Below are positions 5,194 to 57,638 of a DNA stretch of 64,000 nt, piece after piece. The notes below the pieces were generated by a model. It searched no databases and was not told the DNA's origin. It saw only the letters and a program-made list of their open reading frames with translations. Made by a program: the position numbers and the translations under genes. Each line of letters starts with the position of its first letter. The first letter of the stretch is position 1. This DNA comes from Centroscyllium fabricii (lineage: Eukaryota), in NCBI GenBank assembly GCA_051313645.2, contig JBNRSN020000030.1, positions 37,944,001 through 38,008,000 on the forward strand. Reading direction: 5' to 3'.

Positions 5194-5282
5194 ACGTCAG
5201 CTTTAGCTCAGCGTTTACTTCGCAGCATCAACTTCATTGTAAGTTAGGCCCCTGTCTCACCACGGGCGCTGTCTGGCGTTTT
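5194..5282 (+). pseudogene. Vault RNA gene copy 1, degenerate
   Basis: GCTTTAGCTCAGCGTTTACTTCG...CACGGGCGCTGTCTGGCGTTTT; box A has a G>T change and box B reads GTTAGGCC. Confidence 0.85.
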
Positions 5283-5405
5283 AATTGTCATGTTCACCCC
5301 CTTTCCTTTCGCACCGAAACAAATTGTAATCGCGACTACAGATTCACTGCGTGAGATTGTTGGAGGATAACTTTAAACTATTTACCACCTATTTTTTGTC
5401 AGCTT

Positions 5406-5437
5406 GGAGACCCGGGTTCGATTCCCACTTAAGGAAT
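5406..5437 (+). pseudogene. tRNA T-arm remnant (Glu/Asp/Gly-like)
   Basis: GGAGACCCGGGTTCGATTCCC..AAGGAA resembles a tRNA 3' half; no recognisable 5' half; more eroded in other units. Confidence 0.4.
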
Positions 5438-6022
5438 TAATTTTGCCATCACCACTTTTAATTAATTAATGCGAAAAAAATGTATTAAATTAAAATCATG
5501 CATCAAATGTGAAAAAATAAGAATTGTTTTAATAACCATTATTGAACCAATAAATTATTTTGCAGATTGAAATATATTAAAATGTGGTTACTGAGGGAAA
5601 GTCGAAATTCAGTCATTTAATTTGTTCTTACATGTGCTGATCCTTTAACCCACATCTGATGTTTTGCATCTTATTTCAGGAGGATGGTTTAAAATGTTCA
5701 TTGCTGGTGAAAGCAGGGATCTGGGGCAACTTTTGTTAAATTTAACAGGACCGGTTATTTCACCGAAATGAAATATTCTCTGAACATGTTTCCAGTCCAT
5801 ACACTGAGCAATCTTTCTCAGACCCAAATAGGATGGTCTGACAGTTGCCCACTTTGAACTCCATTAATCGCAGTTCAGGGGAGATTTAATTGAGGTGATC
5901 AATATTACGGGGGAATCAGTTTCCACCGGCTGGAGGTTCAGCAGGGCTATGGGGGAAGAGCAGCTGACTGGGACTAATAGGATAGTTCTTTCCAAGATGC
6001 TGCATCAATTGTTCATTTTAAT

Positions 6023-6110
6023 CTTAATGTGGAGGTGCCGGTGTTGGACTGGGGTTAACAAATGCAAGAAGTCACACAACACCAGATTATAGTCCAACGG
6101 TTTTATTTTA
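6023..6110. mobile_element. Short Penelope-like repeat fragment
   Basis: gtggaggtgccggtgttggactgggg...cacaacaccagattatagtccaac resembles a common shark repeat end; absent from the matching position of the 36.1 kb unit. Confidence 0.45.
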
Positions 6111-6880
6111 ATCTGCGATAGACTGATTTTTGTTAACCAAAGTTGCTAAGCAATAATGCCAGTAGGTGAGACTCTTTATAATTGTTTCAGTCATCATTAA
6201 TCAACGCATAAAATTTTGTTGCACAATTCAGGAATTGCTAACAAGTTTTCAGGCTGACAGAGATACTTGAATAACCTTTTATAGAATCAGACAGCACAGG
6301 ACGGGGCCATTCGGCCCATAGTGCCTGCACTTTTCCCAAAACCCTGCAACTATTTCGTATTAAATTTCTTTCCCTATCGAAAGTTAATATTGGATCAGCT
6401 TCTACCACTCTGTCAGACAGAACAATATTGTCATTAATGTTATCCAAGTCCCATTTCATACAGTACTTTCCTTGCTTTCCATGTCATGTACATTTTCCCT
6501 CCTCACTTTATTTGAGCAGTTTGTTTCAAAATGTTCGATGATTGTGACATCAGCCATTGTTATATTGAAAGGTTGCAGCCACTTTCCTTGAAATCTCTAC
6601 CCCAAAGTGCTGTGGATGCTCATTTGTTGAGTATATTCAAGGCTGAGATCGATAGATTTTTGGACTGTAGTGGAATCCAGGGGTCTATGGACAGGCAGGA
6701 AAGTGGTGCTGAGGTCGAATATTATCCATGTCCTTATTGAATGGTGCAGCAAGGTCTGCGTGCCATAAGGCCTACTCCTTCTCCTAATTCTCTCGTTCTT
6801 ATGATATTATATCCTTTCACAGGAGGGCAATCTCATCCCTGGACCTACATGAGGAGCAAGTTCCAACAAATTGTTACCTC

Positions 6881-6909
6881 TAACGTGATATCTCCTACAC
6901 TGCGGAAAC
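6881..6909 (-). pseudogene. Old tRNA-Val 5'-half remnant
   Basis: aacgtgatatctcctacactgcggaaac versus Val gene aacgtgataaccgctacactacggaaac. Also at ~21903, 36926, 43805, 50215, 57975. Confidence 0.65.
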
Positions 6910-7048
6910 AACACCATTTTCAGTACGAGTTCTGATGGAAATGTTAAGCGAGCAGGTGAACCGCTGAATCCCACTTTTGATGGATCTCCCAAAGCGATTC
7001 TGTGTCGTCAAAATAAGTGAGTTGCACTTAATAATTAAATAGAGAGAA

Positions 7049-7128
7049 TATCAGGATTTGAACCCAAAGCCATTCAGGAGTGATTGCAACAATAACGGGA
7101 GCACATTGGACCGTTCGGCCATCCTGAC
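7049..7128 (-). pseudogene. tRNA-Leu pseudogene, heavily decayed
   Basis: Minus strand starts GTCAGGATGGCCGAACGGTCCAA and has GGGTTCAAATCC near its 3' end; same unit position as the other Leu relics. Confidence 0.7.
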
Positions 7129-7140
7129 TGATTAATTTAT

Positions 7141-7245
7141 TCCAGTTCTGATGAAAGGTCCAGAACCCGAACCGTTAACTCAGTTTCTCTCTCCACGGAT
7201 GCTGCCTGGCCTGCTGAGTATTTGCAGCATTTTCTGTTGTTATTT
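7141..7245 (+). mobile_element. Penelope-like element end with a degenerate hammerhead-type motif
   Basis: ctgatgaaaggtccagaacccgaaccgtt...gatgctgcctggcctgctgagt; CTGATGA-stem-GAA(C) arrangement. Confidence 0.5.
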
Positions 7246-8328
7246 CATGAAAAAAAAGCACTGGCAGGCAAAATAATGCAAAATCCCAAGGTGCTTTATA
7301 AGTATATTAGGGGCAAGACGATAATCAGGGGAAGAGTAGGTCCCATTAGGGACCGAAATGGCAATCTGTGTGTAGAGCCGGGAGACGTAGGTGGGGATTT
7401 TAAATGAATATTTTGCCACTGTGTTCACCGGCTCGGTGTCAAATTCTGTCTGATACTCGCTCCTGTGACGCAGCTTGGGTGTTTTACAACTTTAAAGGGC
7501 GCTATATAAATGCAAGTTGTTTTTGTTGTTCTTTTCCTGAGTGTGGTGTTTATATACAAGATCGGTGTTTATAGAATACTGCGCAAGTCTGTTATTTGTA
7601 AGTATTAATGAGCGGTTATTTTTCAGACTGGAGGGATGTATACAGTGGTGTTACACAGGGCTCGGTATTTGGACCACTGCTCCTTTCGATATATATTAAC
7701 GAGCTGGACTTGTGTATACTCGGCAAAATTTCAAAGTTTGCAAAAGGCAGGTAAGTCAGAAATGAAGTAAGTAATGAGACGGAAAGTAACAGACCTCATG
7801 AGGCCATCTACAGCTGGTGAAATGGGCAGAGACATGGTAGATGTAATTTAACACAGAGAGGTGTGAAGTGATCCATTTTGGCGCGAAGATTGAACGGAGG
7901 CAAAATATAAATTAAATGTCACAATTTTAATTCGGGTGCAGGAGCAACGAGACCTGGGGTGTATTTATTTATCTTTGATGGTGGTGGGACAAGTTGCAAA
8001 TGCTGTTACAAAACATACGAGATACTTGGCTATATTAATAAAGCCACAGAGGACAAAGGCAAGGAAGTAATATTAAGCCTTTATACATTATTGGTTGGGC
8101 CTCAGCTGGTGGATTCTGGGCACAACCGTTTAGGAAGAATGTGGAGGCAGAAAAGGTTTGCAAGCATGTTACGGGGGATGAGGGTCTTCAGCTATGTGGA
8201 CAGACTGGGGAAGCTGTTGTCCTTCTCCTTGGAGCAGAGACGATTGCGACGACATCTGATAGAGGTGTTCAAAATCACGAGGGGCCTAGACAGGACAGTG
8301 TCATAGGCCCAAACATCACCAGCTGCAT

Positions 8329-8735
8329 CATAGACATAGACATAGAAACTAGGAGCAGGAGTAGGCCATTCGGCCCTTCGAGCCTGCTTCGCCATTCAAT
8401 GAGATCATGGCTGATCATCCAAACCCAGCACCCCGCCCCTGCCCTCACCCCATATCCCTCGATCCCTATCGAGCCTCCATCAACACATATCCCACCCTAT
8501 CCCCGTAACCCCACATATTCAAACCCCCTAACACTAAGGGTCAATTTATCCTGGCCAATCAACCTAACCCGCACATCTTTGGACTGTGGGAGGAAACCGG
8601 ATCACCCAGAGGAAACCCACGCAGACACGGGGAGAATGTGCAAACTCCACACAGATAGAACCCGAGGCTGGATTTGAACCCGGGTCTCCAGTGCTGTGAG
8701 ACAACAGTGCTAATCACTGTGCCACCGTGCCACCC
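8329..8735 (-). mobile_element. HE1-like V-SINE
   Basis: tRNA-like head (GGTGGCACAGTGATTAGCA...GGTTCAAATCC), V-domain (gtgtggagtttgcacattctccccgtgtctgcgtgggtttcctc), CR1-type tail ending (ctatgt)n. Confidence 0.9.
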
Positions 8736-9255
8736 GAAACCATCAATGGCCTTCCCTCCAAAATAAGGTCAGCAATGGGAATGTTCGCTGAAGTCTGCAC
8801 ACAAAGGAATGAGATGGATGTTGTCTACATGGATTTTAAGATGGCGTTTGACAAAGTACCACATAGAAGGCTGGTCAACAAAATTGAAGCATGCGGAATA
8901 GGTGGGTCAGTGGCACCTTGGAGAAGGAGTTGGTTTAAGGATAAAATACAGCGAGTTGTTATAAATGTCTGTTTTTCACACTGGAGGATGGTAGACAGGG
9001 GTGTTCCCCAAGGGTCAGAGCTGGTGCCATAGCTTTTGTGATATATATAAAAAACCTGGATATTGGAATACGGGGTAGATTTATAAGTTTGCTAACGACA
9101 CCAAACTGAGGGTGTAATAAACAGTGAGGATGATACCAATCTACTGCAGCAGGACATAGAAAGGCTCGCATAATGGGCAGACAAGTGGGAGATGGAAATT
9201 AATACAGGGAAGTATGAGGTGATACATTTTGTCTGAGGGAACAGTGAGAGGCATT

Positions 9256-10155: not shown

Positions 10156-10289
10156 AATATACACATAATGGCAGTTTTAAAGGGTGTGCTGGGACAGCCG
10201 TACCTGGGAGTTAATGTGCATAGGTACTTGAAGGTGGCAGGACATATGGAGAGATTGTTTAACAAAACATATGGGATCTTGGACTTAAT

Positions 10290-15495: not shown

Positions 15496-15567
15496 GGCAT
15501 CGTGGCGCAACGGTAGCGCGTCTGACTCCAGATCAGAAGGCTGTGTGTTCAAATCACGTCGGGGTCA
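15496..15567 (+). tRNA. tRNA-Trp(CCA), near-intact (A4:G69 mismatch; possibly a pseudogene)
   Basis: GGCATCGTGGCGCAACGGTAGCGCGTCTGACTCCAGATCAGAAGGCTGTGTGTTCAAATCACGTCGGGGTCA, 72 nt; D and anticodon arms intact. Confidence 0.75.
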
Positions 15568-18139: not shown

Positions 18140-20085
18140 GTACCCTCTAACGGCCTTCACATCCTTCCCAAAGTGTGGTGACCTGATCTGATGCAGTAAT
18201 CTGCTGGCGGCCTGACCGGAGTTTTATAAACAATCAGAATAACTTCTCTACTTTTGTACTCAATACCTCTATTTATGAAGCCCAATATCCCATATGCTTT
18301 GTTAACCGCTATCTCCACATGTCCTGCCACCTTCAAGGACCTATGCACATTAACACCCAGGCACAACTGTCCCTGCACAGTCTTTTAAACTGTGCCGTTA
18401 TGTGCATATTGCCTTTCACTGTTTCTTCTGATAAAATGCTTCATCTCTCACTTCTCTGTAGTAAATTCTATCTGCTACTTGTCTGCCATTCCGCGAGCCT
18501 TTCTATGTCCTGCTGCAGTAGATTGTTATTATCCTCACTCTGTGTTACTCCCCCAAGATTGTTGCAGTCAGCATATTTTGAAATGTTGCTCTGTAGTCAA
18601 ATATCCAAGCCATTTATAAATATCACAAAAGTCATGTCACCAGCACTGACTCTTGGTTGGGAAACACCACTGTCTACCATCATCTAGTGTGCCAAACTGG
18701 AATTTACAACAACTCGCTGTTTTCCATCCTTAAGCACATTCCTTACTCAAGCTGCCACTGACCCATGTATTCCCTGAACCTCAATTTTGTTAACCAGCCC
18801 TATGGTAATTTGTCAAACGCTTGACTAAAATCCTTGTCGAGAACCTCCATTGCATTCCCTTCTATGCAGCCTTCAGCGAACATCCCCATTTTTGAAATTA
18901 TTTTGAAAATAAGGTCATTGCTGAACCAGCTGAAGATCGTTGGGACAAGGACACCGCATTGTATAGACTCCTCATGAATGTAAAGAACTCTATCAGATCT
19001 CCTCGCAATCTTCTCTGTTCTAATGTGAACAACAACAACTTCTCCATTCTACCCAAGTAACTGAAGTCCCTCATTCCCCGGAACCTGCTTGTAAATCTTT
19101 ACTGCCATTACATCCTCCTAAAATGTTGCACCCAGAATCCACCAGCTGAGGCCTCAGCAGTGATGTATGACGGATTAGCATTACTGCCTTGCTGTTGTAA
19201 TCTATTGCTCTATTAATAAAGCCAAGCAAGTATCCCGTGTGATTTTTAAAAGACTTCTCAACTTGTCCCGCCACCTTCAAAGATAGAGAAAACTTTTGTA
19301 AATCCAGGTCTCTCTGTTCCTGTACACGATCTAAAATTGTGTCATTTAGTTTATATTGCCTCAGTTCATTCTTTCTCTAAAACTGGATCACTTCATATTT
19401 CTCTGTGTTAAATTACATCGGCTATGCCCGTGGCCATTTCCCCACTCTTTCCCTGTCCTCATGAAGTCTGTTACTTTCCGTGTCATTATTTACTACATTT
19501 ATGAGTTTCCTGCCATTTGCAAACTTTGAAACTATGCAAACGCGTTTCACAGGAGCGATTCACAGACAGAATTTGACACCGAGCCACATAAGGGGATATA
19601 AGGACAGGTGACCGAAAGCTTGGACAAAGTTGTAGATTTTACGGAGCGTCTTAAAGGAGGAAAGAGAGGCGGAGAGTTTCAGGGAGTGAACTCCAGAGCT
19701 TCGGGACTCGGCTCACACACCCACACTTTATATTTTTACACCGCCTTCTGCCAGTTCTGAATATTGTTTCCCGCCGCAAGTTTAATTGATTTTCAAAAGC
19801 TGCTCGACGTGTGGTGTATTTTGAGCAGTTTCCCAGTTTATTTCCCTGTGATGTGATGATTGTGGGGGCTCGGTGCGGGTAATTGGATTTGCTGCAGTCC
19901 GCCGGCAGCAGGTGTTGAAAGCGGGCGGGAGACGATGAGTGACAGGTGAGCGCTGCTTCTGATGCTGTCTGACACCCGGTGGGAGTGGGTGGGAATTTTA
20001 AAGGTCTTTCATTACACCAAGGCAAGAGGATGGAAACTGTGTTTGAGGAACGTGCATATATAAAAACATGCATGGTGATGATGTG

Positions 20086-20157
20086 GACATCGTGACACAA
20101 CGGCAGCGCGTCTGACTCCAGATCGCGAGGCTGTGTGTTCAAATCACGTCGGTGTCA
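20086..20157 (+). pseudogene. tRNA-Trp(CCA) pseudogene
   Basis: GACATCG/CGGTGTC acceptor is paired, but the D stem (ACAC) and anticodon stem (TCGCG) are broken. Confidence 0.88.
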
Positions 20158-20423
20158 TTATTATACTAGATTATCACGGAGTTATAATTTTTTTGCAGTT
20201 TCAGAATAACCTGATTATTTCTCTAAAATCATTCTCACTGTTTCCCCAGTGTCAGGGAGAGAAGCGCCTGATGCTCTCATGTATTTAATTTTACTAATTC
20301 ACAAATACAGGTGTTCGTTCAAAATCAACCTGCAGGTGGCCACACATACACTAAGCAGAGCCAGAGAGACAGACAGAATCGGGAAACACCGGGAAATAGG
20401 CAAGAGATATCGACAAGCAGAAC

Positions 20424-20667
20424 TTTCCGAGACCAGAACCTGTCATTATTGATGAAGAACTGGAGCCTGTCCCAAAAAACTATCAGCACAGAGCTGGATA
20501 TACTGGGGTTATCAATGATTGCTGATATTACCAGCCCACCTGTCCTCTCTCGAAACTTGGTTCTACCCATAGCCCCGAATAAAGAAGGTAATGACGTGGG
20601 GAGTGGATTACCTGAAGAAACTGAAGATGAGAACTCTGCCTCTCAGATTGCTGGAAAGATGCCGTAA
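20424..20667 (+). pseudogene. INTS14: INTS14 coding fragment, frameshifted
   Basis: FPRPEPVIIDEELEPVPK/TISTELDILG...ITSPPVLSRNLVLPIAPNKEG...QIAGKMP*. Confidence 0.85.
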
Positions 20668-21476
20668 TTTTGAGTCTAAATGCGCTTTGCGATCAGAACA
20701 TTGCCTGAAGCCGTGTGGATAATGAAAGGGCTTTTGAAACTTGATTTCCTTACACACCTTGGAATTCAGGAAAACCTAGTTCGTGGTTTGCAGAACAAGT
20801 TAAACATCTGGAACTGAGTTAGCAGATGCCTGTCTGCAATCAGCGCCTAAGACTTTCAAAGTGATCAGACCCGGCGAGCTCAGTCGGCAGAGTGTGAGAC
20901 TCTTAATGTCATGTTCCTTGTTTCCAGGCCCATGTTGGGCGAAATAATTTTGTTGAACTTTTATGTTGCTTTCACGGGAAAGTGTCATCAATTAACCAAT
21001 AATCTTCTTTCGCACAATGGAAGAAATGCTAACTGAGGGAGATTCGACATTTCAGTAATTTGGACTTTTGCCCATATCTCATTTTACAAACTGTACTTTA
21101 GGAGTCTCGTTTAAACATGTGCATTGCTGAAGACACCAGGAATCTGGGCAACTTTGGTCAAATTTACCAGGACCGGTTATTTACATTTGTACAGAAAATA
21201 CAATCAGCCGAGTACATAAAATCCCATTGTGCTGAATTTCAGATTCAACGAATTCAGCTTTAAATTAAGGTCAAAATATTTTACAGTGAAAATATATGGA
21301 AGTAAATGTTACTCGTATTTGTGCTTTTAATTACAGTTTGTGTCGTCTGACTCCCGCTCTTGTCTCTTGTTCCTCTGTTGAGTAAGAAAGGATGGTCTTG
21401 AGTTTGACCAGACTGCACTGGCCCTGATATTTGTGAGCTCATCCTTTATATTGAGCGGTTTCACGGTCGTTGATCG

Positions 21477-21565
21477 ACGTCAGCTTTAGCTCAGCGGTTA
21501 CTTCGCAGCATCAACTTCATTGTAAGTTCGAGCCCTGTCGCACCGCAGGCGCTGTCTGGCGTTTT
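21477..21565 (+). ncRNA. Vault RNA gene copy 2
   Basis: ACGTCAGCTTTAGCTCAGCGGTTACTTCG...GTTCGAGCCC...CCGCAGGCGCTGTCTGGCGTTTT: vault 5' signature with box A, box B, terminal stem ACGTCAG/CTGGCGT and T4 terminator. Confidence 0.9.
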
Positions 21566-22075
21566 AATTTTCATTTTCTGTTACACCGAAACAAATTGTA
21601 CGCATGATTTTAATTTAGCAGTGTGATATATTTAGAGGGCAACTTTAAACGATTCGCAACCCATTCATATCAGAACTGACACCAGGATCCACTTCCCTAT
21701 TATGGAATTAATTTGGTCTCACCGTTTTTATTTCATTAATGTGAAGTAATTTAATCAATTAATAGCCTGCATCTAATGTGATAAAATGAGAATTGATTTA
21801 ATAAGCAACAGTGAACCAATAACTTTCTTTTGCAAAATGAAATACATTTTCAAATGAGAGTAAATTCGCCACAGGACATGCAAGTTGCAACAAAATGTTT
21901 CCGCCAACGTGACAGCTGCTACTCTGCGGAAACCTCTCCACTTTCAGTACCAGATCAGATGGAAATGTCCAGCGAGCAGATGAACCGCTGAAACCCACTT
22001 TTGAGGGATGTCCCAAAGATTTCCACAGTGGCTTGCAAAACAAATGAGCTGCACCTTGTAATTAAATATAGAGAT

Positions 22076-22158
22076 GGTCATAAGTGGGATTGGCACCGAA
22101 GCTTCCTGAAGCGATTGCGATTTGAACGCAGCGCCTTAAAACGCTCGGCCACCCTGAC
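22076..22158 (-). pseudogene. tRNA-Leu pseudogene (CAG-type body, anticodon reads CAA)
   Basis: GTCAGGGTGGCCGAGCGTTTTAAGGCGCTGCGTTCAAATCGCAA...GGTGCCAATCCCACTTATGACC, 83 nt; B box destroyed. Confidence 0.85.
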
Positions 22159-22769
22159 TGCTGGTAAACCTATTTGCAAGTACTCAGTTCCGCATTTGAA
22201 ATGTTTCAGACCGGGTGCTTGTTCACTGCTGCTCGAAGGCTCAGTGACCGGGATATCATCTCCCCCGGGGATTTCCCGAGCCTGTGCTCAATTTATGGAG
22301 TGATTTGACCCGGGTCCGTGGTATCTTGCAGCCCAGCGATGGATAATTACTCTCTGAGCTCTGGTGCTCTCTGAGAACGAGAATTTCACGGGCTTGTCTA
22401 TGCGTCTGAAATGCAGCCTAGATCTGCTGGTATTAACCGAGGCCGCGGCTGCGAATGATGCATTTTTTCACGTTTATTCAGAGGAATTTCCACAGTCAGT
22501 AGCTGAAAAGGACCAAGCGCCGATATACTCAAGCCGAAAGATAAGAACAACTCTTCAATGTCTTTTCTTGCAGTTTGGTGGTTAATTGTTTTAATCGCAA
22601 TTCATTATCCGATAGCGTTCTTGCAGAATGAATGAAATGCTCACATTGAGGGATTATCCAAACTTCAATAACGTAACTTTAATAATTTATGAAAACGTAT
22701 TAATTAATGAAGTTTTAGCACCGATCCGATCTTAGATTCATTTCACTCAAATGATACTCTCGAACATAA

Positions 22770-22842
22770 TGTTCCCGCCCGGGATCGAACCGGTGATTTT
22801 TCGCGTGTAAAACGAACGTGATAACCGCTGCACTACGGAAAC
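22770..22842 (-). pseudogene. tRNA-Val(TAC), mutated (probable pseudogene)
   Basis: GTTTCCGTAGTGCAGCGGTTATCACGTTCGTTTTACACGCGAAAAATCACCGGTTCGATCCCGGGCGGGAACA; T-stem mismatch. Confidence 0.8.
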
Positions 22843-23098
22843 CTCTGGTACAAGCCGTCTCCAGAAATATCTGTTCAAGGAGAAGGTTATTAATTTGCCA
22901 TCAGTAACAACTCTCTGCCTAAAAAACTGCGCAAGTCAAACATGTTCCGTTCAATTTCATTGAAGTCCCGAAATCATCCAAATCTTCTCAATCAGATGCC
23001 TCTGATTTTGCCCACGGAATCTCTGTCCATTTGCCATTTTCTGCTTCCATCCACACGACTTACTGTGTCACTAACTTGGTGCCTATAAACGTGGTAAT

Positions 23099-24264
23099 TT
23101 TGTTTATATTCATTGATGGGATGTGGGCGTCGCTGGCTGGCTAGGCCTGCATTTAGTGCCCATCCCTAATTGCCTTTGAGAAGATGGTGGTGAGCCACCT
23201 TCTTGAACCGCTGCAGTCTATATGGTGTAGGTACACCCACAATATTGTTAGGAAGGGAGTTCCAGGATTTTGGCCCAGCGACAGTGAAGGAGCGGAGATA
23301 CAGGTCCAAGTCAGGATGGTGTGTGGCTTGGAGGGGAACTTGTAGGTGGTGCTGTTCCCATGCATCTGCTGCCCTTGTCCTTCTAAGTGGTAGAGGTCGC
23401 GGGTTTGGAAGGTGCTGTTGAAGGAGCTTTGGCGAGTTGCTGCAGTGCATCTTATAGATGGTACACACTGCAGCCACAGTGCGCCTGTGGTGGAGGGAGT
23501 GAATGTTGAAGGTGGTGGATGGAGTGCCAATCAAGTGGCCTGCTTTATCCTGAATGGTGTCGAGCTTCTTGAGTGTTGTTGGAGCTGCACTCATCCAGGC
23601 AAGTGGAGAGTATTCCATCACACTCCTGACTTGTGCCTTGTAGATGGTGGGAAGGATTTGGGGAGTCAGGAGGTGAGACACTCGACGCAGAATTCCCAGC
23701 CTCTGGCCTGCTCTTGTAGTCACAGTATTTATATGGCTGGTCCAGTTCAGTTTCCGATCAATGGTAACCCCCAGGATGTTGATAGTGGGGGATTCAGCGA
23801 TGATAATGCCATTGAATGTCAAGGGGAGATGGTTAGAGTCTCGCTTGTTGGAGATGGTCATTGCCTGGCACTTGTGTGGTGCGAATGTTACTTGCTACTT
23901 GTCAGCCCAAGTCTGAATGTTGTCCAGGTCTTGCTGCATATGGACACGAACTGCGTCAGTATCTGACGAGTTTCGAATGGTGCTGAACAGTGTGCAATCA
24001 TCAGCGAACAGCCCCACTTCTGAACATATGATGGAGGGAAGGTCATTGATGAAACAGCTGAAGATGGTTGGGCCTAGGACACTGCCCTGATGAACTCCTG
24101 CAGTGATGTCCTGTGGTTGAGATGAATGACCTCCAACAACCACAGCCAACTTCCTTTGTGCTAGGTATGATTCCAACCAATGGAGAGTTTCCCCCTTGAT
24201 TCCCATTGACTTCAGCTTTGCCAGGGCTCCTTGATGCCACACTCGATCAAATGCTGCCTTATGC
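23099..24264 (-). mobile_element. 5'-truncated CR1-clade LINE with 7-bp TSD
   Basis: AFDRVWHQG, QGSVLGP, FADDCTL, ...HHHLLKGN; TGGTAAT duplicated at 23092-23098 and 24265-24271; empty site at ~38127 and ~45008. Confidence 0.9.
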
Positions 24265-27663: not shown

Positions 27664-27925
27664 TGTGACCTTCAATAACGTCCACGGAGTCGTGTAGTTG
27701 ATAAGAAACAATCAGGCTTTTATTGACTACAATAGGAATGCACAACAGCAAGCTGAATGTCCCCTGGAATGGCATGGGGGATGGGGACTGTCACTTAAGT
27801 ACTCCCTCCAGCGGGGGAGGAGTCGTGGGCGGAGCCAGGTATGTTCCAGGTATCACAGTGGAATGCATTACAGGTATGGGTTACATGGTGATTAACTATA
27901 TACAGTGATATACACGTTTATCACA
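27664..27925 (-). repeat. 3' LTR of the Gypsy element
   Basis: TGTGA...TCACA termini; matches 32069-32330. Confidence 0.95.
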
Positions 27926-27939
27926 TTCACCCCTTCTTT
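27926..27939 (-). promoter_or_regulatory. Polypurine tract
   Basis: Minus strand AAAGAAGGGGTGAA immediately precedes the 3' LTR. Confidence 0.85.
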
Positions 27940-28045
27940 AAGAACGAAAATACAGCGGGGTGAAGGACTAACAATTACAAAGGTGATCAGAAAAAAAAAA
28001 AAATATATATACAAACGCAGTTCTTATGATTACAAGTTTAATCTA

Positions 28046-31000
28046 TCAGGCGCTCCCCCAGCCGAGTCTTTCAGGCGGTTTGGTTGTCCGCGTCGATCTT
28101 CGCACCGCTGGTGGCGCCTGTGGTGTTCGTGGTCGTGGAGCGGCTGGTTGTGTCGGTTGCTCCATTGATGCCGGTCGACTAGTGGTGGTTGTTATGTTAC
28201 TTCTGGGTGGCGGTGGTGCCCTTATTCTGACAGCAGGGGGCGCGTTCTCTCCTTCGTCCTCTGACTCTAGGGGGCGCGCGCAGTGGATCCAAGCTTGGGG
28301 CCAGGTCGTGCTGCTCGCAGGTGCCTTGTGAGCATACTGGGGTACTGGGGCCACGTGTCGGGGAGCGTACTTCGGCTTCGGCGGCATGGGGTGCGTCACA
28401 GGACATTGTGGGTGCGCGACCTGCTGGGCGGGGCTTCTTGGGAGCTCGGGCTGCCTGGCGGGGCTGGGTTTTGGGACTCCTGCTGGGGCTAGGTCCTTTA
28501 TAGACACGGTGTCCTCCCTCCCTCGGGGAACGCTATGTAGGCGTACTGGGGATTGGCGTGCAGGAGGTGGACCCGTTCGACTAGGGGATCTGCCTTGTGT
28601 CCCCTCACATGCTTCCGGAGCAAGACCGGTCCCGGAGAGAGTAGCCACGCTGGTAGCGAGGTCCCGGAAGCTGACTTCCTGGGGAAGGCAAAAAGTATTT
28701 CGTGAGGTGTGGCATTGGTGGCAGTACACAGGAGGGACCGGATAGAGTGGAGTGCTTCAGGGAGAACGTCCTGCCATCGGGTGACTGGGAGGTTTTTAGA
28801 CCGTAGGTCTAACTGGATGGCTTTCCAGACCGTGGCGTTCTCTCTCTCTACCTGCCCGTTCCCCCGGGGGTTGTAGCTGGTTGTCCTGCTGGTCGCGATG
28901 CCTTTCGCTAGCAGAAACTGACGCAGCTCGTCGCTCATAAAAGAGGCCCCCCGGTCACTATGGATATAGTTAGGGTACCCAAACAGGGAGAAAATGCTAT
29001 TGAGAGCCTTGCTGACGGTGGTGGAGGTCATGTCCTGGCAGGGAATAGCGAAGGGGAAGCGGGAGTACTCATCTATTACGTTAAGGAAGTACACATTCCT
29101 ATTAGATGAGGGAAGGGGCCCTTTAAAATCGACACTGAGTCTTTCAAAGGGGCGAGTGGCCTTGATCAAGTGTGCCCGGTCTGGCCGGTAGAAGTGCGGC
29201 TTGCACTCCACGCAGACCTGGCAGTTGCTGGTCATGGTCTTGACCTCCTCGATGGAGTAGGGGAGGTTGCGGGACTTCACAAAGTGAACCAACCTGGTGA
29301 CCCCCGGGTGGCAGAGGTCATTGTGGAGAGTTTGGAGAATGTCAGCCTGTGCGCTGGCACAGGTACCGTGGGATAGGGCATCTGGGGTTTCGTTAAATTT
29401 CCCGTGCCGGTACAAGATATCATAATTGAACGCTGATAGTTCAATTCTCCACCTTAGTATCTTGTCGTTCTTTATTTTACCCCGTTCTTTGTTATTAAAC
29501 ATGAATGCGACTGATCGTTGGTCAGTCAACAGGGTAAAACGCTTGCCGGCCAGGTAGTGCTTCCAGTGCCGCACTGCTTCAACAATGGCCTGGGCCTCCT
29601 TTTCAACTGAGGAATGGCGAGTTTCGGGGCCTTGGAGGGTACGTGAAAAGAAGGCCACGGGTCTGCCCGCCTGGTTAAGGGTGGCGGCCAGGGCAAAGTC
29701 CGATGCATCACTCTCCACTTGGAATGGGACGGACTCATCCACAGCGTGCATCGTGGCTTTGGCAATATCGTTTTTAATTCTGCAGAACGCCGAGTTGGCT
29801 TCTGCAGAAAGGGGAAAAGAGGTCGATTTAAGTAGTGGGCGAGCTTTGTCCGCATAATTGGGGACCCACTGGGCATAATAGGCAAAGAATCCCACACACC
29901 GTTTAAGAGCTTTGGGGGAGTGGGGGAGGGGAAGCTCCATGAGGGGACGCATGCGGTCCGGGTCTGGACCGATGACTCCATTCTCCACCACGCTGCCGAT
30001 GATGGCTAGGCGGGTGGTGTTAAACACACATTTCTCCTTGTTATATGTTAGGTTCAGAGTTTTGGCCGTAAGGAGAAATTTTTGGAGATTATCATTATGG
30101 TCCTGCTGATCATGGCCGCAGATGGTCACGTTATCAAGATACGGGAATGTCGCTCGCAGCCCGTACTGATCAACCATTCGGTCCATCTCCCTCTGGAAGA
30201 CCGAGACCCCGTTTGTGACGCCAAACGGAACCCTGAGGAAGTGGTAAAGGCGACCGTCAGCCTCAAAAGCTATATAAGGACGGTCCTCTGGGCAGATGGG
30301 AAGCTGGTGATAAGCAGATTTTAAATCGATTGTGGAGTACACTTTAAATTGTGCGATTTGGTTCACCATGTCCGCTATCCGGGGGAGAGGGTAGGCATCT
30401 AGTTGGGTGAACCGGTTTATGGTCTGGCTGTAATCCACCACCATCCTATTCTTCTCTCCGATTTTTACTACCACTACCTGTGCTCTCCAGGGGCTATTAC
30501 TGGCCTCTATGACCCCCTCTTTTAGGAGGCGCTGCACCTCAGATTTTATAAATATCATGTCCTCAGCACTGTAGCGCCTACTTTTGGTGGCGACGGGCTT
30601 AAAGTCTGGGGTGAGGTTCGCAAATAGAGATGGAGGGGCAACCTTAAGGGTTGAGAGGCCACAGGTAGTGTACCCCCAGTACCGCCTTGAGCCGCGGTTC
30701 CTGACCGTGTGTGAGGGAAGGGGTCTGCCGAATGCCATAGTAACGCTCCGAAGATGGCACTAAAAATCCAGTCCCAGGAGTAGGGGGGCGCAGAGCTGCG
30801 GCAGCACGTAAAAACTAAAATCCTTAAACATAGCGCCCTGTACATTAAGCATTACAGTACAGCGCCCTGTAACGTCAGCGGATTCTGACTTTGATGCCAT
30901 AGATATTCTCTGGCGCGCAGGGATTACTTTAAGGGAGAGGCGCTTTACAGTATTTGGGTGAACAAAACTTACTGTGCTCCCACTGTCGAACAGGCACACC

Positions 31001-31209
31001 ACCTCTTCATCATTGACTTCCACCGGCATCATTGATTTCTCCAGTGGTTGAATCTTCCTCTGGTCTAGGCTCATCGATGCTAGCACAGGGTCCTCCGAGT
31101 TATCTTGATCCGGAGAGTAGTCCTCCGAGTCTGCTCCCCAAGATGGCTGCCGCCATGTGTTGGGCTGTGGAGATGGAGTCTGAGTCCAAGATGGCCGCTG
31201 TAGCTGCTG
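28046..31209 (-). pseudogene. pol: pol (protease, RT, RNase H, integrase) with one nonsense codon and one frameshift
   Basis: LFDSGS protease; YLDN RT motif; ESDASD RNase H; H-H-C-C and D,D,E integrase (VDF, SDRG, GQVER). In-frame TAG at 30760-30762; frameshift near 28520 moves the tail (EDTVSIKDLAP...RRSTRTTKPPERL) to another frame. Confidence 0.93.
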
Positions 31210-32049
31210 CTATGAGGGCTGCTGAGTGGGGGATAGGTGAGCCCAATGTGGCTGCTCCCCTGTTCCACACGCAGCGCTGCCCAGTTTAGATTTAAAGTTA
31301 GAGCTAGAGTTTTTACAGACCTTTGCATAATGTCCCTTTTTGTCGCATTTTGAACAGGTCGCTTCTCTGGCAGGGCAGCTGCGTCTTGAATGTTGAGGTT
31401 GCCCACAGAAGTAGCATCTAGCTTTAGCGTGGGCAGCTGTGAGTAGTTCTTCTGCCGGTCGTTGCACCGGCGTTGTCCAAGATTGCGGGGCTGGGCCCGT
31501 ATAATTACTTGAGTATGAGGATAAGTCCATTGATGCGCTATCCAGCGCGTGTCCCAAGTCTGTGGTCGCCTGTAAATCCTGGCCGTTCTGCTCCAGCAGT
31601 CTCTGTCTGGCATAGTCCGATTTTAGACCAGTTACGTAGGCGTCTCTGATGAGGCTCTCCATATGAACTTGAGCCGTTTGCGCTTTGCAATCACAGTCCC
31701 GAGCCAGAGTTCTGAGGGCTCTTAGGAACTGCACACTTGATTCGTTGTTCTGTTGCTTTCTAGTAGCAAGTATGTGTCTCGTGTGGACTATGTTCGGTGC
31801 CTGCTTATATTCCGCCTCGAGGAGTCTGATGGCCTCTTGGAACGATGGGGTGTCCACTGTCATTGAGTACATTTGAGGGCCCACTCGGGCGTTGAAGAGT
31901 CGCCGATTTTGCTCCTCGGTCACTATGACCGCCGCGTTGGCTCTGATGTACCCTTCGAGTACGTTTCTCCAGTGTGAGAAGGCGTTTGCTGCTCCTGAAG
32001 ATCGGGGGTCAACTTCGAACACTGATGGTTTAAGCATTGCAGTATCCAT
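31210..32049 (-). pseudogene. gag: gag of the Gypsy element, in frame with pol
   Basis: 279 aa with double zinc knuckle CYFCGQPQHSRRSC / CSKCDKKGHYAKVC; the TAG at 31210 sits in a PSW repeat, so it is probably TGG>TAG. Confidence 0.9.
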
Positions 32050-32068
32050 TTCCAGTTGTCAATAAAAT

Positions 32069-32330
32069 TGTGACCTTCAATAACGTCCACGGAGTCGTGT
32101 AGTTGATAAGAATCAATCAGGCTTTTATTGACTACAATAGGAATGCACAACAGCAAGCTGACTGTCCCCTGGAATGGCATGGGGGATGGGGACAGTCACT
32201 TAAGTACTCCCTCCAGCGGGGGAGGAGTCGTGGGCGGAGCCAGGTATGTTCCAGGTATCACAGTGGAATGCATTACAGGTATGGGTTACATGGTGATTAA
32301 CTATATACAGTGATATACACGTTTATCACA
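32069..32330 (-). repeat. 5' LTR of the Gypsy element
   Basis: 262 bp; AATAAA on the minus strand; gag ATG lies 20 nt downstream. Confidence 0.95.
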
Positions 32331-33900: not shown

Positions 33901-33972
33901 GACATCGTGGCGCAACGGTAGCGCGTCTGACTCCAGATCTGAAGGCTGCGTGTTCAAATCACATCGATGTCA
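33901..33972 (+). pseudogene. tRNA-Trp(CCA), mutated (probable pseudogene)
   Basis: Perfect GACATCG/CGATGTC acceptor; T:T mismatch in the anticodon stem and C:A mismatch in the T stem. Confidence 0.82.
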
Positions 33973-35292: not shown

Positions 35293-35382
35293 ACGTCAGC
35301 TTCAGCCCAGCAGTTACTTCCCAGCATCAACTTAAATCTGAGTTCGAACCCTGTCTCACCGCGGGCGCTGTCTGGCGTTTTT
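35293..35382 (+). pseudogene. Vault RNA gene copy 3, box A mutated
   Basis: GCTTCAGCCCAGCAGTTACTTC...GTTCGAACCC...CCGCGGGCGCTGTCTGGCGTTTTT. Confidence 0.85.
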
Positions 35383-37096: not shown

Positions 37097-37178
37097 TGTC
37101 AGAAGTGCGATTGGAACCGAAGCTTCCAGAAGAAGTTCGATCTAAATACAGCGCCTTAGACCGCTCGGCCCCGCTGAC
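37097..37178 (-). pseudogene. tRNA-Leu pseudogene
   Basis: GTCAGCGGGGCCGAGCGGTCTAAGGCGCTG...GGTTCCAATCGCACTTCTGACA. Confidence 0.85.
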
Positions 37179-37806: not shown

Positions 37807-37879
37807 TGTTCCCGCCCGGGATCGAACCGGGGATCTTTCGCGTGTAAAGCGAACGTGATAACCGCTACACTACGGAAAC
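37807..37879 (-). tRNA. tRNA-Val(TAC), intact cloverleaf
   Basis: GTTTCCGTAGTGTAGCGGTTATCACGTTCGCTTTACACGCGAAAGATCCCCGGTTCGATCCCGGGCGGGAACA; acceptor, anticodon and T stems pair; T5 run ~20 nt downstream. Confidence 0.92.
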
Positions 37880-41968: not shown

Positions 41969-41987
41969 CATCCAGGGGTATGATGTG

Positions 41988-42059
41988 GACCTCGTGGCGT
42001 AACAGTAGCGCGTGTGACTCCAAATCGGAAGGCTGCGTGTTCAAATCACGTCGGGGTCA
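41988..42059 (+). pseudogene. tRNA-Trp(CCA) pseudogene
   Basis: Canonical GACCTCG/CGGGGTC acceptor and T arm; D-loop GG lost and anticodon stem mismatched. Confidence 0.87.
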
Positions 42060-43351: not shown

Positions 43352-43375
43352 GAGCGGCTTCTCGCTCGCTGATTG

Positions 43376-43465
43376 ACGTCAGCTTTAGCTCAGCGGTTAC
43401 TTCGCAGCATCAACTTCATTATAAGTTCGAGCCCTATCGCACCGCGGACGCTGTCTGGCGTTTTT
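43376..43465 (+). ncRNA. Vault RNA gene copy 4
   Basis: Intact box A (TAGCTCAGCGG), box B (GTTCGAGCC), terminal stem and T5 terminator. Confidence 0.9.
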
Positions 43466-43975: not shown

Positions 43976-44058
43976 GGTCATAAGTGGGATTAGCACCCAA
44001 GCTTCCAGAAGCGATTGCGATTTGAACGCAGCGCCTGAAAACGCTCGGCCACCCTGAC
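43976..44058 (-). pseudogene. tRNA-Leu pseudogene
   Basis: 83-nt homolog of 22076-22158. Confidence 0.85.
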
Positions 44059-44687: not shown

Positions 44688-44760
44688 TGTTCCCGTCCGC
44701 GATCGAACCGGGGATTCTTCGCGTGCAAAGCGAACGTGATAACCGCTACACTACGGAAAC
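44688..44760 (-). pseudogene. tRNA-Val-derived pseudogene with TGC anticodon
   Basis: Val body, loop TT-TGC-AC, two T-stem mismatches. Confidence 0.82.
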
Positions 44761-48451: not shown

Positions 48452-48496
48452 GACATCGTGGTCAGAAGGCTGCGTGTTCAAATCACGTCGGTGTCA
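48452..48496 (+). pseudogene. tRNA-Trp pseudogene with a 27-nt internal deletion
   Basis: GACATCGTGG joined directly to TCAGAAGGCTGCGTGTTCAAATCACGTCGGTGTCA; D arm and anticodon are missing. Confidence 0.9.
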
Positions 48497-49788: not shown

Positions 49789-49878
49789 ACGTCGGCTTTA
49801 GCTCAGCGGTTACTTCGCAGCATCAACTTCATTGTAAGTTCGAACCCTGTCCCACCGCGGGCGCTGTCTAGCGCTTTT
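49789..49878 (+). ncRNA. Vault RNA gene copy 5
   Basis: GGCTTTAGCTCAGCGGTTACTTCG...GTTCGAACCC...CCGCGGGCGCTGTCTAGCGCTTTT; terminal stem weakened. Confidence 0.88.
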
Positions 49879-50387: not shown

Positions 50388-50470
50388 GGTCATAAGTGGG
50401 ATTGGCTCCCAAGCTTCCAGAAGCGATTGCGATTTGAACGCAGCGCCTTAAAACGCTCGGCCACCCTGAC
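50388..50470 (-). pseudogene. tRNA-Leu pseudogene
   Basis: 83-nt homolog of 22076-22158. Confidence 0.85.
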
Positions 50471-51176: not shown

Positions 51177-51249
51177 TGTTCCCGCCCGGGATCGAACCGG
51201 TGATTTTTCGCGCGTAAAACGAACGTGATAACCGCTACACTACAGAAAC
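51177..51249 (-). pseudogene. tRNA-Val(TAC) pseudogene
   Basis: Shares T-stem and anticodon-stem changes with the 22770 copy, plus acceptor and loop changes. Confidence 0.82.
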
Positions 51250-51503
51250 CTCTGGTACAAGCCGTCTCCAGAAATATCTGTTCAAGGAGAAGGTTATTAA
51301 TTTGCCATCAGTAACAACACTCTGCCCCAAACTGCGCAAGTCAAACATGTTCCGTTCAATTGCATTGAAGTCCCGAAATCACCCAAATCTTCTCAATCAG
51401 ATGCCTCTGATTTTGCCCACGGAATCTCTGTCCATTTGCCATTTTCTGCTTCCATCCACACGACTTACTGTGTCACTAACTTGGTGCCATTAAACGTGGT
51501 AAT

Positions 51504-53972: not shown

Positions 53973-56159
53973 GTACCCTCTAAGGGCCTTCACATCCTTC
54001 CCAAAGTGTGGCGACCTGATCTAGATGCAGTAACCTGGTTGCGGCCTGACCGGTGTTTTATAAACAATCAGAATAACTTCTCTACAATTGTACTGAATAC
54101 CTCTATTTATGAAGCTCAATATCCCATATGTCTTGTCATCCACTCTCTTCACATGACCTACCACCTTCAAGGACCTATGCACATTAACTCCCAGGAACAT
54201 CTGTCCCTGCACAATCTTTAAAACTGTGCCATTATGTGTATATTGCCTTTCACTGTTCCTTCTGCCAACATGCATCATCTCACACTTCTCTGTAGTAAAT
54301 TCCATCTGCCACTTGTCTGCAATTCCGCGAGCCTTTCTATGACCTGCTGCAGTCGAGTTGTATTATCCTCACTCTGTGTTACACTGCCAGGTTTGGTGCC
54401 GTGGACATATTTAGAAATTCTACTTTGTATTACAATATCCAGGCCATTTCTAAATATCACAAAAGTCATGACACCAGCACTGCCACTTGGGGAACAACAA
54501 TGTCTACCATCATCGAGTGTGATAAACAGCCATTTACCACAACTCGCTTTTCTCTATTCTTAATCCAATTCCATATTCAAGCTCCCACTGACCCACCTAT
54601 TCCATGAGCCACAATTTTGTTAACCAGCCTTCTATGCGGTAATTTGTCAAATGCCTTACTAAAATTCTTGTCGCCATATTCCATGCATTTTCTTCTGTGC
54701 AATCTTAAGCGAACATCGCCAGTTTTGTAATTATTTTGGAAGCAAGGTTATTGCTGAACCAGCTGAAGATCGCTGGGACTAGGAAACTGCCCTGCATCGA
54801 CCCTCTCATGAATTTGAAGAACTCTATCAGAGCTCCTCGCAATCTTCTCTGTTCTAAGGAGAAAAACGACAATTCTCCAGTCTACCCAAGTAACTGAAGT
54901 CGCTCATTCCTCGGAACCTGCTTGTAAATCTTTACAGCCATTCCATCCTCCCAAAAATGTTGTCCCCAGAATCCACCTGCTGAGGCCTCAGCAGTGATCT
55001 ATAACGGATTAGCATTACTGCCTTGCTGTTGTAATCTATTGCTCTATTAATAAAGCCAAGTATCCCCTGTGATTTTTAAAAGCCTTCTCAACTTGTCCCG
55101 CCACCTTCAAAGATAGAGAAACCTTTGGTAAATCCAGGTCTCTCTGTTCCTGCCCACGATTTGTAATTCAATCAATTAGTTTTTATTGCCTCAGTTCATT
55201 CTTCCCCTAAAACTGGATCACTTCACATTTCTCTGTGTTAAATTACATCGGCTATGCCTCTGCCCATTTCCCCACTCTGTCGATGTCCTCATGAAGTCTG
55301 ATACTTTCCGTGGCATTATTTACTACATTTTTGAGTTTCCTGCCGCATGCAAACTTTGAAACTCTGCCGAGTATACACAAGTCCAGGTCATTAACATATA
55401 TATCGAAAGGAGCAGGGGTCCCAATCCCGACCCCTGGGGAACACCTCTCTATACTTCCCTCCAGTCTGAACATTAACCGTTCACCAATATTTGCAATTAA
55501 CACACGAGCACAGCATCGTACTCATTCTATAAATACCCATTTATATATGAACACCAGACCCATATACACAACAACAAAAACACCTTGCATATATATAGCG
55601 CCTTTAAATTATTAAAACTTCCCAAGCCGTTTCACAGGAGCGATTCTCAGACAGAATTTGGCACCGAGCCACATAAGGAGATATTAGGACAGGTGACCGA
55701 AAGCTTGGTCAAAGTTGCAGATTTTAAGGAGCGTCTTAAAGGAGGAAAGAGAGGCGGAGAGGTTCAGGGAGGGAACTCCAGAGCTCCGGGCTTCGGCTCA
55801 CACACCCACACTTTATATTTTTACACCGCCTTCTGCCAGTCCTCAATATTGTTTCCCGCCGCAAGTTTAATTGATTTTTAGAAGCTGCTCGACCTATGGT
55901 GTATTTTGAGCAGTTTCCCAGTTGATTTCCCTGTGATGTGATGATTGTGGGGGCTCGGTGCGGGTAATTGGATTTGCTGCAGTCCGCCGGCAGCAGGTGG
56001 CGAAAGCGGGCGGGAGACGGTGAGTGACAGGTGAGCGCTGCTTCTGATGCTGACTGACACCCGGTGGGAGTGGGCGAGGATTTTAATGGCCTTTAATTAC
56101 TCCAAGGAAACTGTGTTTGAGGAACGTCCATATATAAAAACATGCATGGTGTTGCTGTG

Positions 56160-56231
56160 GACATCGTGGCGCAACGGTAGCGCGTCTGACTCCAGATCAG
56201 AAGGCTGCGTGTTCAATTCGCGTCGTTGTCA
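56160..56231 (+). tRNA. tRNA-Trp(CCA), near-intact (one T:T acceptor mismatch)
   Basis: GACATCGTGGCGCAACGGTAGCGCGTCTGACTCCAGATCAGAAGGCTGCGTGTTCAATTCGCGTCGTTGTCA. Confidence 0.75.
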
Positions 56232-56495
56232 TTATTCTACTCGATAATCCCGGAGTTATAGTTTTCTTTGCTGTTCACAATAACTAAATTATTGCTCTTA
56301 AATTGTTCTCACTGTTTCGCCAATGTCAGGGAGTAAAGCGCCTGATGCACCCAGATTTAATTTTACTAATTCCCAAATACAGGTGCTCGTTCAAAATCAA
56401 CCTGCAGGTGGCCACACATGGAATAAACAGAGCGAGAGAGACAGAAAGAATCTGGAAACACCGGGAAATAGGCAAGAGATATTGACAAGCAGAAT

Positions 56496-56742
56496 TTTCC
56501 GAGACCAGAACCTGTCATTATTGATGAAGAACTGGAGCCTGTCCCAAAAACTATCAGCACAGAGCTGGATATACTGGGGTTTATCAATGATTGCTGATAT
56601 TACCAGCCCACCTGTCCTCTCTCGACACTTGGTTCTACCCATATCCCTGAATAAAGAAGGTGATGCCGTGGGGAGTGGATTACCTGAAGAAACTGAAGAT
56701 GAGAACTCTGCCTCTCAGATCGCTGGAAAGATGCCGCAGTTT
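56496..56742 (+). pseudogene. INTS14: INTS14 coding fragment, frameshifted
   Basis: FPRPEPVIIDEELEPVPKTISTELDILG/..IADITSPPVLSRHLVLPISLNKEG...QIAGKMPQF. Confidence 0.86.
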
Positions 56743-57548
56743 TCAGACTAATTGCGGTTTGCGATCAGAACATTGCCTGAAGCCGTGTGGTTTATGAAAG
56801 GGCTTCTGATACTTGATTTCATTACACTCCTTAGAATTCAGGAAAACCTGATTCGTGGTTTGCGGAACAAGTTAAACATCTGGAACTGAGTTAGCAGACG
56901 CCTGGCTGCAATCAGAGCCAAAGACTTTCAAAGTGATCAGACCCGGCGAGCTCAGTCTGCAGAGTTTGAGACTCCAAATGTCATGTTCGTTGTTTCCAGC
57001 CCCATGTTGGGCGAAAGAATATTGTTGAACTTCTATGTTGCTTTCACGGGAAAGCGTCATCAATTAACCAATAATCTTCTTTTGCACAATGGAAGAAATC
57101 CTAATTGAGGGAGATTCGACATTTGAGTAATTTGGACTTTTGCCCATATCTCATTTTACAAACTGTACTTTAGGAGTCTCGTTTAAACATGTGCATTGCT
57201 GATGACACCAGGAATCTGGGCAACTTTGGGCAAATTTACCAGGACCGGTTATTTCCATTTGTACAGAAAATACAATCGGCCGAGTACATAAAATCCCATT
57301 GTGCTGAATTTCAGATTCAACGAATTCAGCATAAAATTAGGGTGAAGTTATTTTACAGTGAAAATATTTTGAAGTAACTGTTACTCGTATTTGTGCCTTT
57401 AATTACAGTTTGTGTCGTTTGACTCCCGCTCATGTCTCTTGTTCCTCTGTTGAGTAAGAAAGGAGGGTCTTGAGTTTGACCAGACTGCACTGACCCTGAT
57501 ATTTGTGAGCTCATCCTTTATATTGAGCGGTTTCTCGCTCCCTGATCG

Positions 57549-57638
57549 ACGTCAGCTTTAGCTCAGCGGTTACTTCGCAGCATCAACTTAATTCTAAGTT
57601 CGAGCCCTGTCGCAGCGCGGGCGCTGTCTGCCGTTTTT
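57549..57638 (+). ncRNA. Vault RNA gene copy 6
   Basis: Intact boxes A and B and T5 terminator; two stem substitutions (AGCGCGG, CTGCCGT). Confidence 0.87.

Follow-up and report, generated by a model that had tools for sequence, protein, structure and literature searches.

How does a gene for vault RNA come to be repeated six times within 64 kb of shark DNA, in the company of tRNA genes, and do the copies still do anything? The question is raised by a stretch of 64,000 nucleotides from Centroscyllium fabricii (assembly GCA_051313645.2, contig JBNRSN020000030.1, positions 37,944,001 to 38,008,000 of the forward strand; hereafter the window), in which an earlier note had reported vault RNA genes as a fixed component of a tRNA tandem array. 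The account which we consider probable is that a vault gene landed behind a tRNA-Trp gene in an old tRNA/histone cluster, that unequal recombination multiplied it there, and that many of the copies were transcribed in the germ line, with selection acting at the level of the family.

All six copies matched the Rfam Vault covariance model (RF00006) over its full length (model positions 1-99) at 41.5-61.8 bits, the gathering score of 34 bits being used as the cut-off, and 12 further full-length matches over the cut-off were found in 150 kb of neighbouring DNA. They lie on the forward strand, their starts exactly as first reported, at 5194..5283 (41.5 bits; a subfamily B gene with no intact tRNA-Leu or tRNA-Val behind it and with boxes A and B both damaged), 21477..21566 (59.7 bits; subfamily A, with the TATA-like box, boxes A and B and the run of four T residues, T4, intact), 35293..35382 (52.9 bits; box A damaged), 43376..43465 (57.3 bits; all four elements intact), 49789..49878 (61.8 bits; boxes intact, terminal stem weakened) and 57549..57638 (53.7 bits; boxes intact, terminal stem weakened). 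The earlier note had credited four copies with boxes A and B and a terminator, and these proved to be the ones at 21477, 43376, 49789 and 57549. A T-run terminator for RNA polymerase III (Pol III) and, upstream, TATA-like and palindrome motifs are present in all six, and pairing of the 5' and 3' ends into a terminal stem appears in the predicted fold of four. The sequence and the promoter together mark the six as real vault RNA genes, members of RF00006, as had been claimed.

The earlier note was right about an amplified array and under-called its scale: across the 7.2-Gb genome the gene occurs about 200 times, spread over more than 3 Mb. A vault 16-mer gave 141 exact genome matches and a vault 22-mer 196 at up to two mismatches; reversed-pattern controls for both gave none, and chance is therefore excluded. 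A search of the genome DNA returned 218 candidates, all 49 of those scored passing the RF00006 cut-off, and extrapolation from motif counts, scaled by the share of sampled copies carrying each motif, gave 184-214 copies. Among the first 100 matches listed, 93 fell on the 45.7-Mb contig that carries the window (C823, the window lying at 37.94-38.01 Mb), four on C710 (1.3 Mb) and three were singletons, and two patterns listed in full (28 and 44 matches) showed nothing on other contigs except a single match on C711. The vault arrays of C823 occupy 27.2-27.4 Mb and 36.9-40.25 Mb, and between them, at 28.5-35.4 Mb, lie 23 of the 84 genome matches to histone H1. Adjoining the left end of the vault array (C823:36.893-36.921 Mb) are 30 tRNA-Gln-like copies, which form a dense array and are mostly 0.6-0.7 kb apart.

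The anatomy of the arrays was examined in approximately 0.8 Mb of fetched array DNA holding 73 vault copies. The upstream flank is common to 71 of the 73, and units align over kilobases; the vault genes themselves stand 6.4-22.7 kb apart (22 copies in 264 contiguous kb). For the 69 copies with room on both sides, tRNA-Trp was found upstream of 54, with tRNA-Leu beside 39, tRNA-Val beside 35 and tRNA-Gln beside 14, and a second vault gene lay approximately 0.95 kb away in ten cases, forming tandem vault pairs; conversely, a vault gene stood behind 51 of 67 tRNA-Trp copies. Three types of unit can be told apart: A (Trp-vault-Leu-Val), B (a degenerate Trp-vault unit, common at C823 38.3-39.95 Mb) and a Gln-pair type which often carries two vault genes. 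Spacers diverge by 4-8% within subfamilies and by 11-14% overall (diversity 0.11-0.14). The GTTCRA B box is absent from all 43 sampled tRNA-Leu copies, none of which reaches the Rfam tRNA cut-off, and the tRNA-Leu of the arrays is a dead pseudogene. The anticodon pattern applied to Leu matched 0 of the 43. The mixed Pol III array of vault and tRNA genes proposed in the earlier note is borne out by the RF00006 matches and the shared upstream flank. The fixed cassette of tRNA-Trp, vault and tRNA-Leu/Val that it described is not supported as stated, all three tRNA genes occurring together at only 27 of the 69 copies, with tRNA-Trp at 54, and the Leu member being dead. In a homogeneous tandem tRNA array the units are all of one length and almost identical, and their tRNA genes are intact; here the spacing, the broken Leu copies and the spacer diversity all depart from that pattern. 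Tandem Repeats Finder returned 0 rows because the repeat periods exceed its limit.

Could the copies instead be the heads of a vault-derived short interspersed nuclear element (SINE), or an artefact of assembly? Four flankless retrocopies would fit the former, but a SINE would be dispersed, with unrelated flanks and a 3' tail, and what was found is a common upstream flank, units alignable over kilobases and clustering on C823 and C710. As to an artefact, 69 of the 73 vault bodies are distinct, and the cassette is also represented in contigs from four public runs. This explanation is extremely improbable, and we take it to be refuted because of the shared flanks together with the divergence between units.

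If the copies are genes, do they carry what is needed for expression? A TATA-like TTTATATT is found at -32/-25 in 65 of the 73 sampled copies and a palindrome TGAGCTCA at -43/-36 in 62, the latter differing in both sequence and position from the cyclic AMP response element (CRE) of known vault genes, TGACGTAG at -53/-46 (PMC7279448, in part). Measured by the vault consensus for box A, TRGYnnARBGG, and box B, GGTTCRAnYCY (PMC7279448, in part), box A was present in 63 copies and box B in 42, the first G of box B usually being A or T in the arrays, and 66 ended in a T-run terminator. The 5' and 3' ends pair in 94% of cells across 33 copies, with covariation no higher than in shuffles. Each copy would form its own Pol III unit, with upstream elements, boxes A and B and a T-run stop, yielding an RNA of approximately 89 nt. 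Comparisons within subfamilies were made on 30 B units and 16 A units; 20 extra loci were chosen by the upstream block alone, which avoids selection by vault sequence, and 16 of these gave B units. In 21 of the 30 B units box B reads GTTCGGCCC. The largest young subfamily, its box B changed to GTTCGG, would run mainly on the upstream promoter; its copies would lean on upstream elements because box B is altered and yet a footprint of transcription is present.

That footprint lies immediately before the gene. The 20 bp preceding active tRNA genes are hypermutable, with an excess of C-to-T and G-to-A changes, and the same mutability has been proposed for other Pol III genes (Thornlow et al., PMC6130373, in part). 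Among the 16 A units, where the spacer shows 0.43-0.49 changes per site, the figure for the 5' flank is 1.36 at the vault gene, 1.35 at Trp and 1.60 at Val, and the flank of the dead Leu gene, at 0.30, has no hot spot. Among the 30 B units, no other 14-bp interval in 2,341 columns varies as much as positions -14..-1 of the vault gene, at 2.43 changes per site (2.12 at non-CpG sites) against an interval mean of 0.49 (standard deviation 0.27), and the 5' flank of the degenerate tRNA-Trp stands at 0.70. Transitions predominate in the -14..-1 hot spot. Decay of CpG sites was rejected as its cause, the hot spot being seen at non-CpG sites and spacer CpGs being only slightly raised. In the window the hypervariable 14 bp directly before the gene at 21477 (21463..21476, forward strand) are likely such a footprint of transcription-associated mutagenesis; upstream lies the conserved promoter block (-75 to -15; 21402..21462, forward strand), which recurs at 5119, 35218, 43301, 49714 and 57474. 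Retrocopies tell a similar story. Three flankless vault copies of the array type, starting at nt 2 or 3, are found on contigs C711, C1 and C469 (L003:4772-4861, L001:4741-4825 and L002:4667-4706), and that on C711 (nt 2-92) reaches the T-run and is fused to a 5'-truncated long interspersed nuclear element (LINE) of CR1 type, open reading frame 1 through reverse transcriptase. Vault RNA must once have been made, since such vault-LINE retro-chimeras exist. Past germ-line transcription of many array copies by Pol III is likely.

Is the transcription, or its product, under selection? Parsimony across subfamilies on 69 of the 73 copies, four partial or interrupted ones being dropped, gave 1.09 changes per site at -75..-20 and 1.04 at nt 1-28, against 2.98 and 3.48 in the far flanks; the promoter and the 5' 28 nt are therefore held about three times tighter. 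The loop stands at 3.19 and nt 67-85 at 2.21. Within subfamilies the promoter is lower than the spacer in A units (0.23, p = 0.01) and non-significantly so in B units (0.36, p = 0.22). The promoter and 5' domain thus appear to have been kept over long times, with single copies that are seemingly redundant and decaying.

The same figures have to be set against the suggestion that the arrays are a field of pseudogenes, all of the copies being silent today and the conserved promoter and hot spots mere relics. For it speak the equal divergence of vault body and spacer within subfamilies, the non-consensus box B of the dominant subfamily, the dead Leu gene adjoining, and the tRNA-Trp and tRNA-Val bodies of A units, which change faster than the spacer (0.76 and 0.89 changes per site). 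Against it, a hot spot arose inside the youngest subfamily, with its 4% spacer divergence, the promoter of A units is still constrained relative to their spacer, and 44 copies in the genome keep a strict pattern of TATA, box A, box B and terminator at exact spacing. On balance this suggestion seems to us unlikely.

In the account that we favour, one vault gene would have moved beside a tRNA-Trp gene within the tRNA/histone cluster; unequal recombination would have multiplied vault and tRNA-Trp together with remnants of tRNA-Leu, -Val and -Gln; Pol III would have transcribed many of the vault copies in the germ line; and the family would have evolved by birth and death, selection acting on the family whilst single copies were redundant and decayed. 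A number of results weigh against it. Within the young subfamilies, conservation of the vault body does not exceed that of the spacer (p = 0.9), with 0.53 against 0.48 changes per site in B units and 0.53 against 0.43-0.49 in A units; constraint on nt 1-28 within subfamilies is only marginal (p = 0.051 and 0.18), and the parsimony p-values, which treat alignment columns as independent, are a guide only. The flank hot spot marks past germ-line activity only, and it was obtained by parsimony, on trees open to distortion by gene conversion. All four checks (TATA, boxes A and B, T4) are passed by 31 of the 73 sampled copies, the strict pattern is limited to the 44 already mentioned, and a GTTCGA box B occurs in 1 of the 30 B units. 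Covariation in 33 copies was not above that of shuffles and so lends the fold no support, and the folding of individual copies is weak (z 0.0 to -2.5). Finally, the direction of the move, vault gene into tRNA cluster, rests on synteny taken from the literature.

A bolder explanation makes the arrays adaptive: a battery of vault genes selected for high output in the germ line or early embryo, a separate protocadherin-linked gene serving the soma. Arrays of oocyte-type 5S and tRNA genes offer the analogy. The footprint of activity is by its nature germ-line; vault and Trp have been kept across subfamilies where Leu died and Val was lost from many units; tandem vault pairs account for 10 of 69 sampled copies; the arrays flank the histone cluster; and another vault type, of 95 nt, is found as a LINE chimera, the assembly lacking the gene from which it came. 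The vault body is, however, free of constraint within young subfamilies, most copies have lost at least one core element, and the units are poorly homogenised, as their spacer divergence attests. For MVP there is one match among 4 candidates, a shoulder-domain exon on C225, and a wealth of tRNA loci is general in shark genomes (bioRxiv 10.1101/2025.06.08.657570, in part). We regard such a battery as possible but doubtful. The proposal in the earlier note that the array raises vault RNA dosage, or co-regulates it with tRNAs, is not supported as stated, given the single MVP match and a vault body no tighter than the spacer in young subfamilies; adaptive dosage is unproven. By the same tentative reasoning, sharks might possess two vault systems resembling oocyte and somatic 5S genes, a germ-line or embryo battery of 200 copies inside the tRNA/histone supercluster, its largest subfamily relying on the upstream promoter in place of box B, and a separate low-copy gene; this too we hold to be a doubtful proposition.

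Where, then, would the low-copy gene be? The 95-nt vault type (58.6 bits with RF00006) lies on the reverse strand of C723 at 64,875-64,969 (L022:4876-4970), fused to approximately 900 bp of the 3' end of a CR1-type LINE and inserted in a repeat, which resumes after the LINE tail. As a vault-LINE insertion interrupting a repeat, it was rejected as the ancestral gene; the source gene of the type was not found in the assembly, and the 150 kb around the copy held no Rfam match and no coding exon recognised by eye. The 95-nt type nevertheless suggests a second vault gene, perhaps the canonical one. In gnathostomes the vault gene is placed upstream of the protocadherin cluster (PMC10491885 and PMC7058938, both in part). 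The earlier note had advised checking for linkage to protocadherin genes, and the array contigs C823 and C710 gave no protocadherin match; the arrays therefore do not occupy the position of the VTRNA1 locus, between ZMAT2 and the clustered protocadherins. In the assembly as a whole, PF15974 gave 0 matches, PF08266 gave 55 scattered matches of 89 scored with no dense cluster, and the one match among 21 for PF16492 was PCDH10; with 210 residues of a clustered protocadherin from elephant shark as query, none of the 150 candidates scored (of 335) exceeded 59% identity. The PCDH10 sequence shares 96% identity with an entry from a sawshark, 91% with one from an electric ray, 85% with zebra shark and no more than 81% with bony fish, which places the genome among the elasmobranchs, most likely the sharks. 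HARS gave 0 matches in the assembly, and IK was located on C1011, where the 150 kb beside it held no Rfam match. The canonical region seems to be unassembled, since neither clustered protocadherins nor HARS were found. Dozens of short EC1-like protocadherin fragments (frames of 40-250 aa) do occur, on a large number of contigs; a mobile element or retrocopying may have dispersed them.

The remaining features of the window follow the layout of the units, in which tRNA-Trp precedes the vault gene by approximately 1.4 kb, both on the forward strand, and the vault gene is followed on the minus strand by Leu after approximately 0.6 kb and by Val after approximately 1.3 kb. There are seven Trp modules to six vault genes. 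On the forward strand, tRNA-Trp(CCA) copies lie at 3854..3927 (31.9 bits; degenerate, in a subfamily B unit), 15496..15567 (57.5 bits; a truncated unit without a vault gene), 20086..20157 (33.8 bits; degenerate), 33901..33972 (58.3 bits), 41988..42059 (51.8 bits) and 56160..56231 (62.2 bits), and a tRNA-Trp 3' half was found by blastn at 48462..48496. The tRNA-Leu pseudogene at 22076..22158 (minus strand; broken B box, below the Rfam cut-off, no flank hot spot) was found by ARAGORN or blastn, as were further copies at 37098-37178, 43976-44058, 50388-50470 and 58148-58230. The best tRNA-Val(TAC) is at 37807..37879 (minus strand, 63.9 bits), and weaker copies are at 22770-22842, 44688-44760, 51177-51249 and 58843-58917 (50.4, 50.4 and 32.1 bits, that at 44688 falling below the cut-off with its anticodon changed to TGC). 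Behind the vault gene at 5194 there is no Leu and only a fragment of Val. Changed anticodons recur elsewhere (L015:4402-4473, L010:6425-6498, L013:5318-5389 and L038:9207-9279, besides 44688-44760 in the window): ARAGORN calls of Ala, selenocysteine (SeC), Gly, His and Cys come from Val, Trp and Gln bodies in which the anticodon has changed, the SeC call being a TCA anticodon on a Trp body, and such copies could inflate shark tRNA counts, selenocysteine calls included. Intron-mode ARAGORN calls were dismissed as noise. Spacer remnants at 20868-20940 and 21903-21933 look like the 5' half of a tRNA-Lys and a 5' fragment of Val, and they make it likely that additional tRNA genes were present in the ancestral unit.

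A conserved block of approximately 120 bp lies 120-240 bp upstream of tRNA-Trp (19845..19964, forward strand, with further copies starting at 3613, 15255, 33660, 41748, 48208 and 55930). Its conservation equals that of the vault promoter (in A units 0.21 changes per site, the spacer having 0.43-0.49; p = 3e-4), and a 22-mer from it has 199 exact genome matches, all 100 of the matches listed lying within the arrays. It had no Rfam match at E<=1, and carries what we take to be a GC box, a CCAAT in inverted orientation and a word resembling the CTCF core; it is possibly an insulator or enhancer. Outside the repeat unit there is a private long terminal repeat (LTR) retrotransposon at 27664..32330 (minus strand), with reverse transcriptase, RNase H and integrase domains; it is young, its LTRs being 98.9% identical, and its gag and pol are split over several frames. 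No host protein gene was found among the 12 of 39 long window frames that were scanned, five of which have retroelement domains, six no match and one an ALKBH8_N domain, presumably a LINE tail.

What would such an array be good for? The function of vault RNA is a long-standing question, and the vertebrates described hold a handful of genes. If the germ-line battery were real, it would stock free vault RNA far above what a single MVP gene could engage, and would constitute a natural high-dose test of the role of vault RNA outside the particle. About 200 copies with variants of box A, box B, promoter and stem form a natural mutational series for the composite vault promoter, and the array itself records, copy by copy, where transcription took place: the flank hot spot carries the mutagenesis signature of tRNAs over to vault genes, by which activity may be inferred without RNA data. 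The question of dosage becomes testable across sharks. Pol III genes of other kinds can evidently be taken up by an old tRNA/histone cluster and amplified there, and scans for tRNA only will miss them. Should the array reflect drift only, its interest would lie mainly in non-coding RNA annotation and genome evolution.

How does the array compare with systems already known? Contigs of four public runs (four organisms, of which A is possibly the source species) were compared with positions 19500-23200 of the window. One from organism C spans promoter, vault gene and downstream flank at 21383-21751 (57 differing letters, 8 gaps) and one from organism D does so at 21404-21655 (22 differing letters, 14 gaps); a vault gene with these flanks therefore exists elsewhere. 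No vault-tRNA junction was seen among the contig pieces listed for the four runs. The likeness to human VTRNA1-1, VTRNA1-2, VTRNA1-3 and VTRNA2-1 extends to the same full-length model match, a length of 89 nt, the T-run and ends predicted to pair; the internal boxes, A at +11..+21 and B near +50, and an upstream TATA-like box are likewise shared with vertebrate vault genes (PMC7058938 and PMC10491885, in part). They differ in number, one to four copies, with small local clusters in few mammals (PMC10491885, PMC9179338 and PMC7058938, in part), against about 200 here, in their position at ZMAT2-PCDH or TGFBI-SMAD5 as opposed to a tRNA/histone contig, and in that a large subfamily here has box B GTTCGG. 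In an avian survey the human genome gave 9 vault hits and that of chicken 2 (PMC4378963, in part), and the available part of PMC7916137 contains nothing on vault copy number. In the searchable literature no title or abstract start described such a vault array, among the top entries where lists were long. The vault/tRNA array is apparently a real and undescribed variant of a known gene family, although automatic Rfam annotation of shark genomes may already include such loci.

Small RNA-LINE chimeras produced by template switching are known, of the U6-L1 type, and the C711 and C723 copies resemble them in joining a vault body to the 3' part of a CR1-type LINE; they differ in pairing vault RNA with CR1, and are by-products, separate from the array itself. 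Tandem amplification of Pol III genes is familiar from the 3.18-kb repeat of Xenopus, the human 1q23 array and oocyte-type 5S arrays, and here too several Pol III genes have been amplified together as one unit. In contrast to these, the shark units are 6.4-22.7 kb in length and 4-14% divergent, and contain private retroelements, dead tRNAs and a vault gene. There is a likeness in layout with chromosome 28 of the red stingray, which carries a tRNA/histone supercluster of more than 300 tRNA loci (bioRxiv 10.1101/2025.06.08.657570, in part); there, as here, tRNA arrays and a large histone cluster are intermingled on one small sequence of chromosome scale, the stingray study having covered tRNA and ribosomal DNA only, with "vault" occurring 0 times in its main text.

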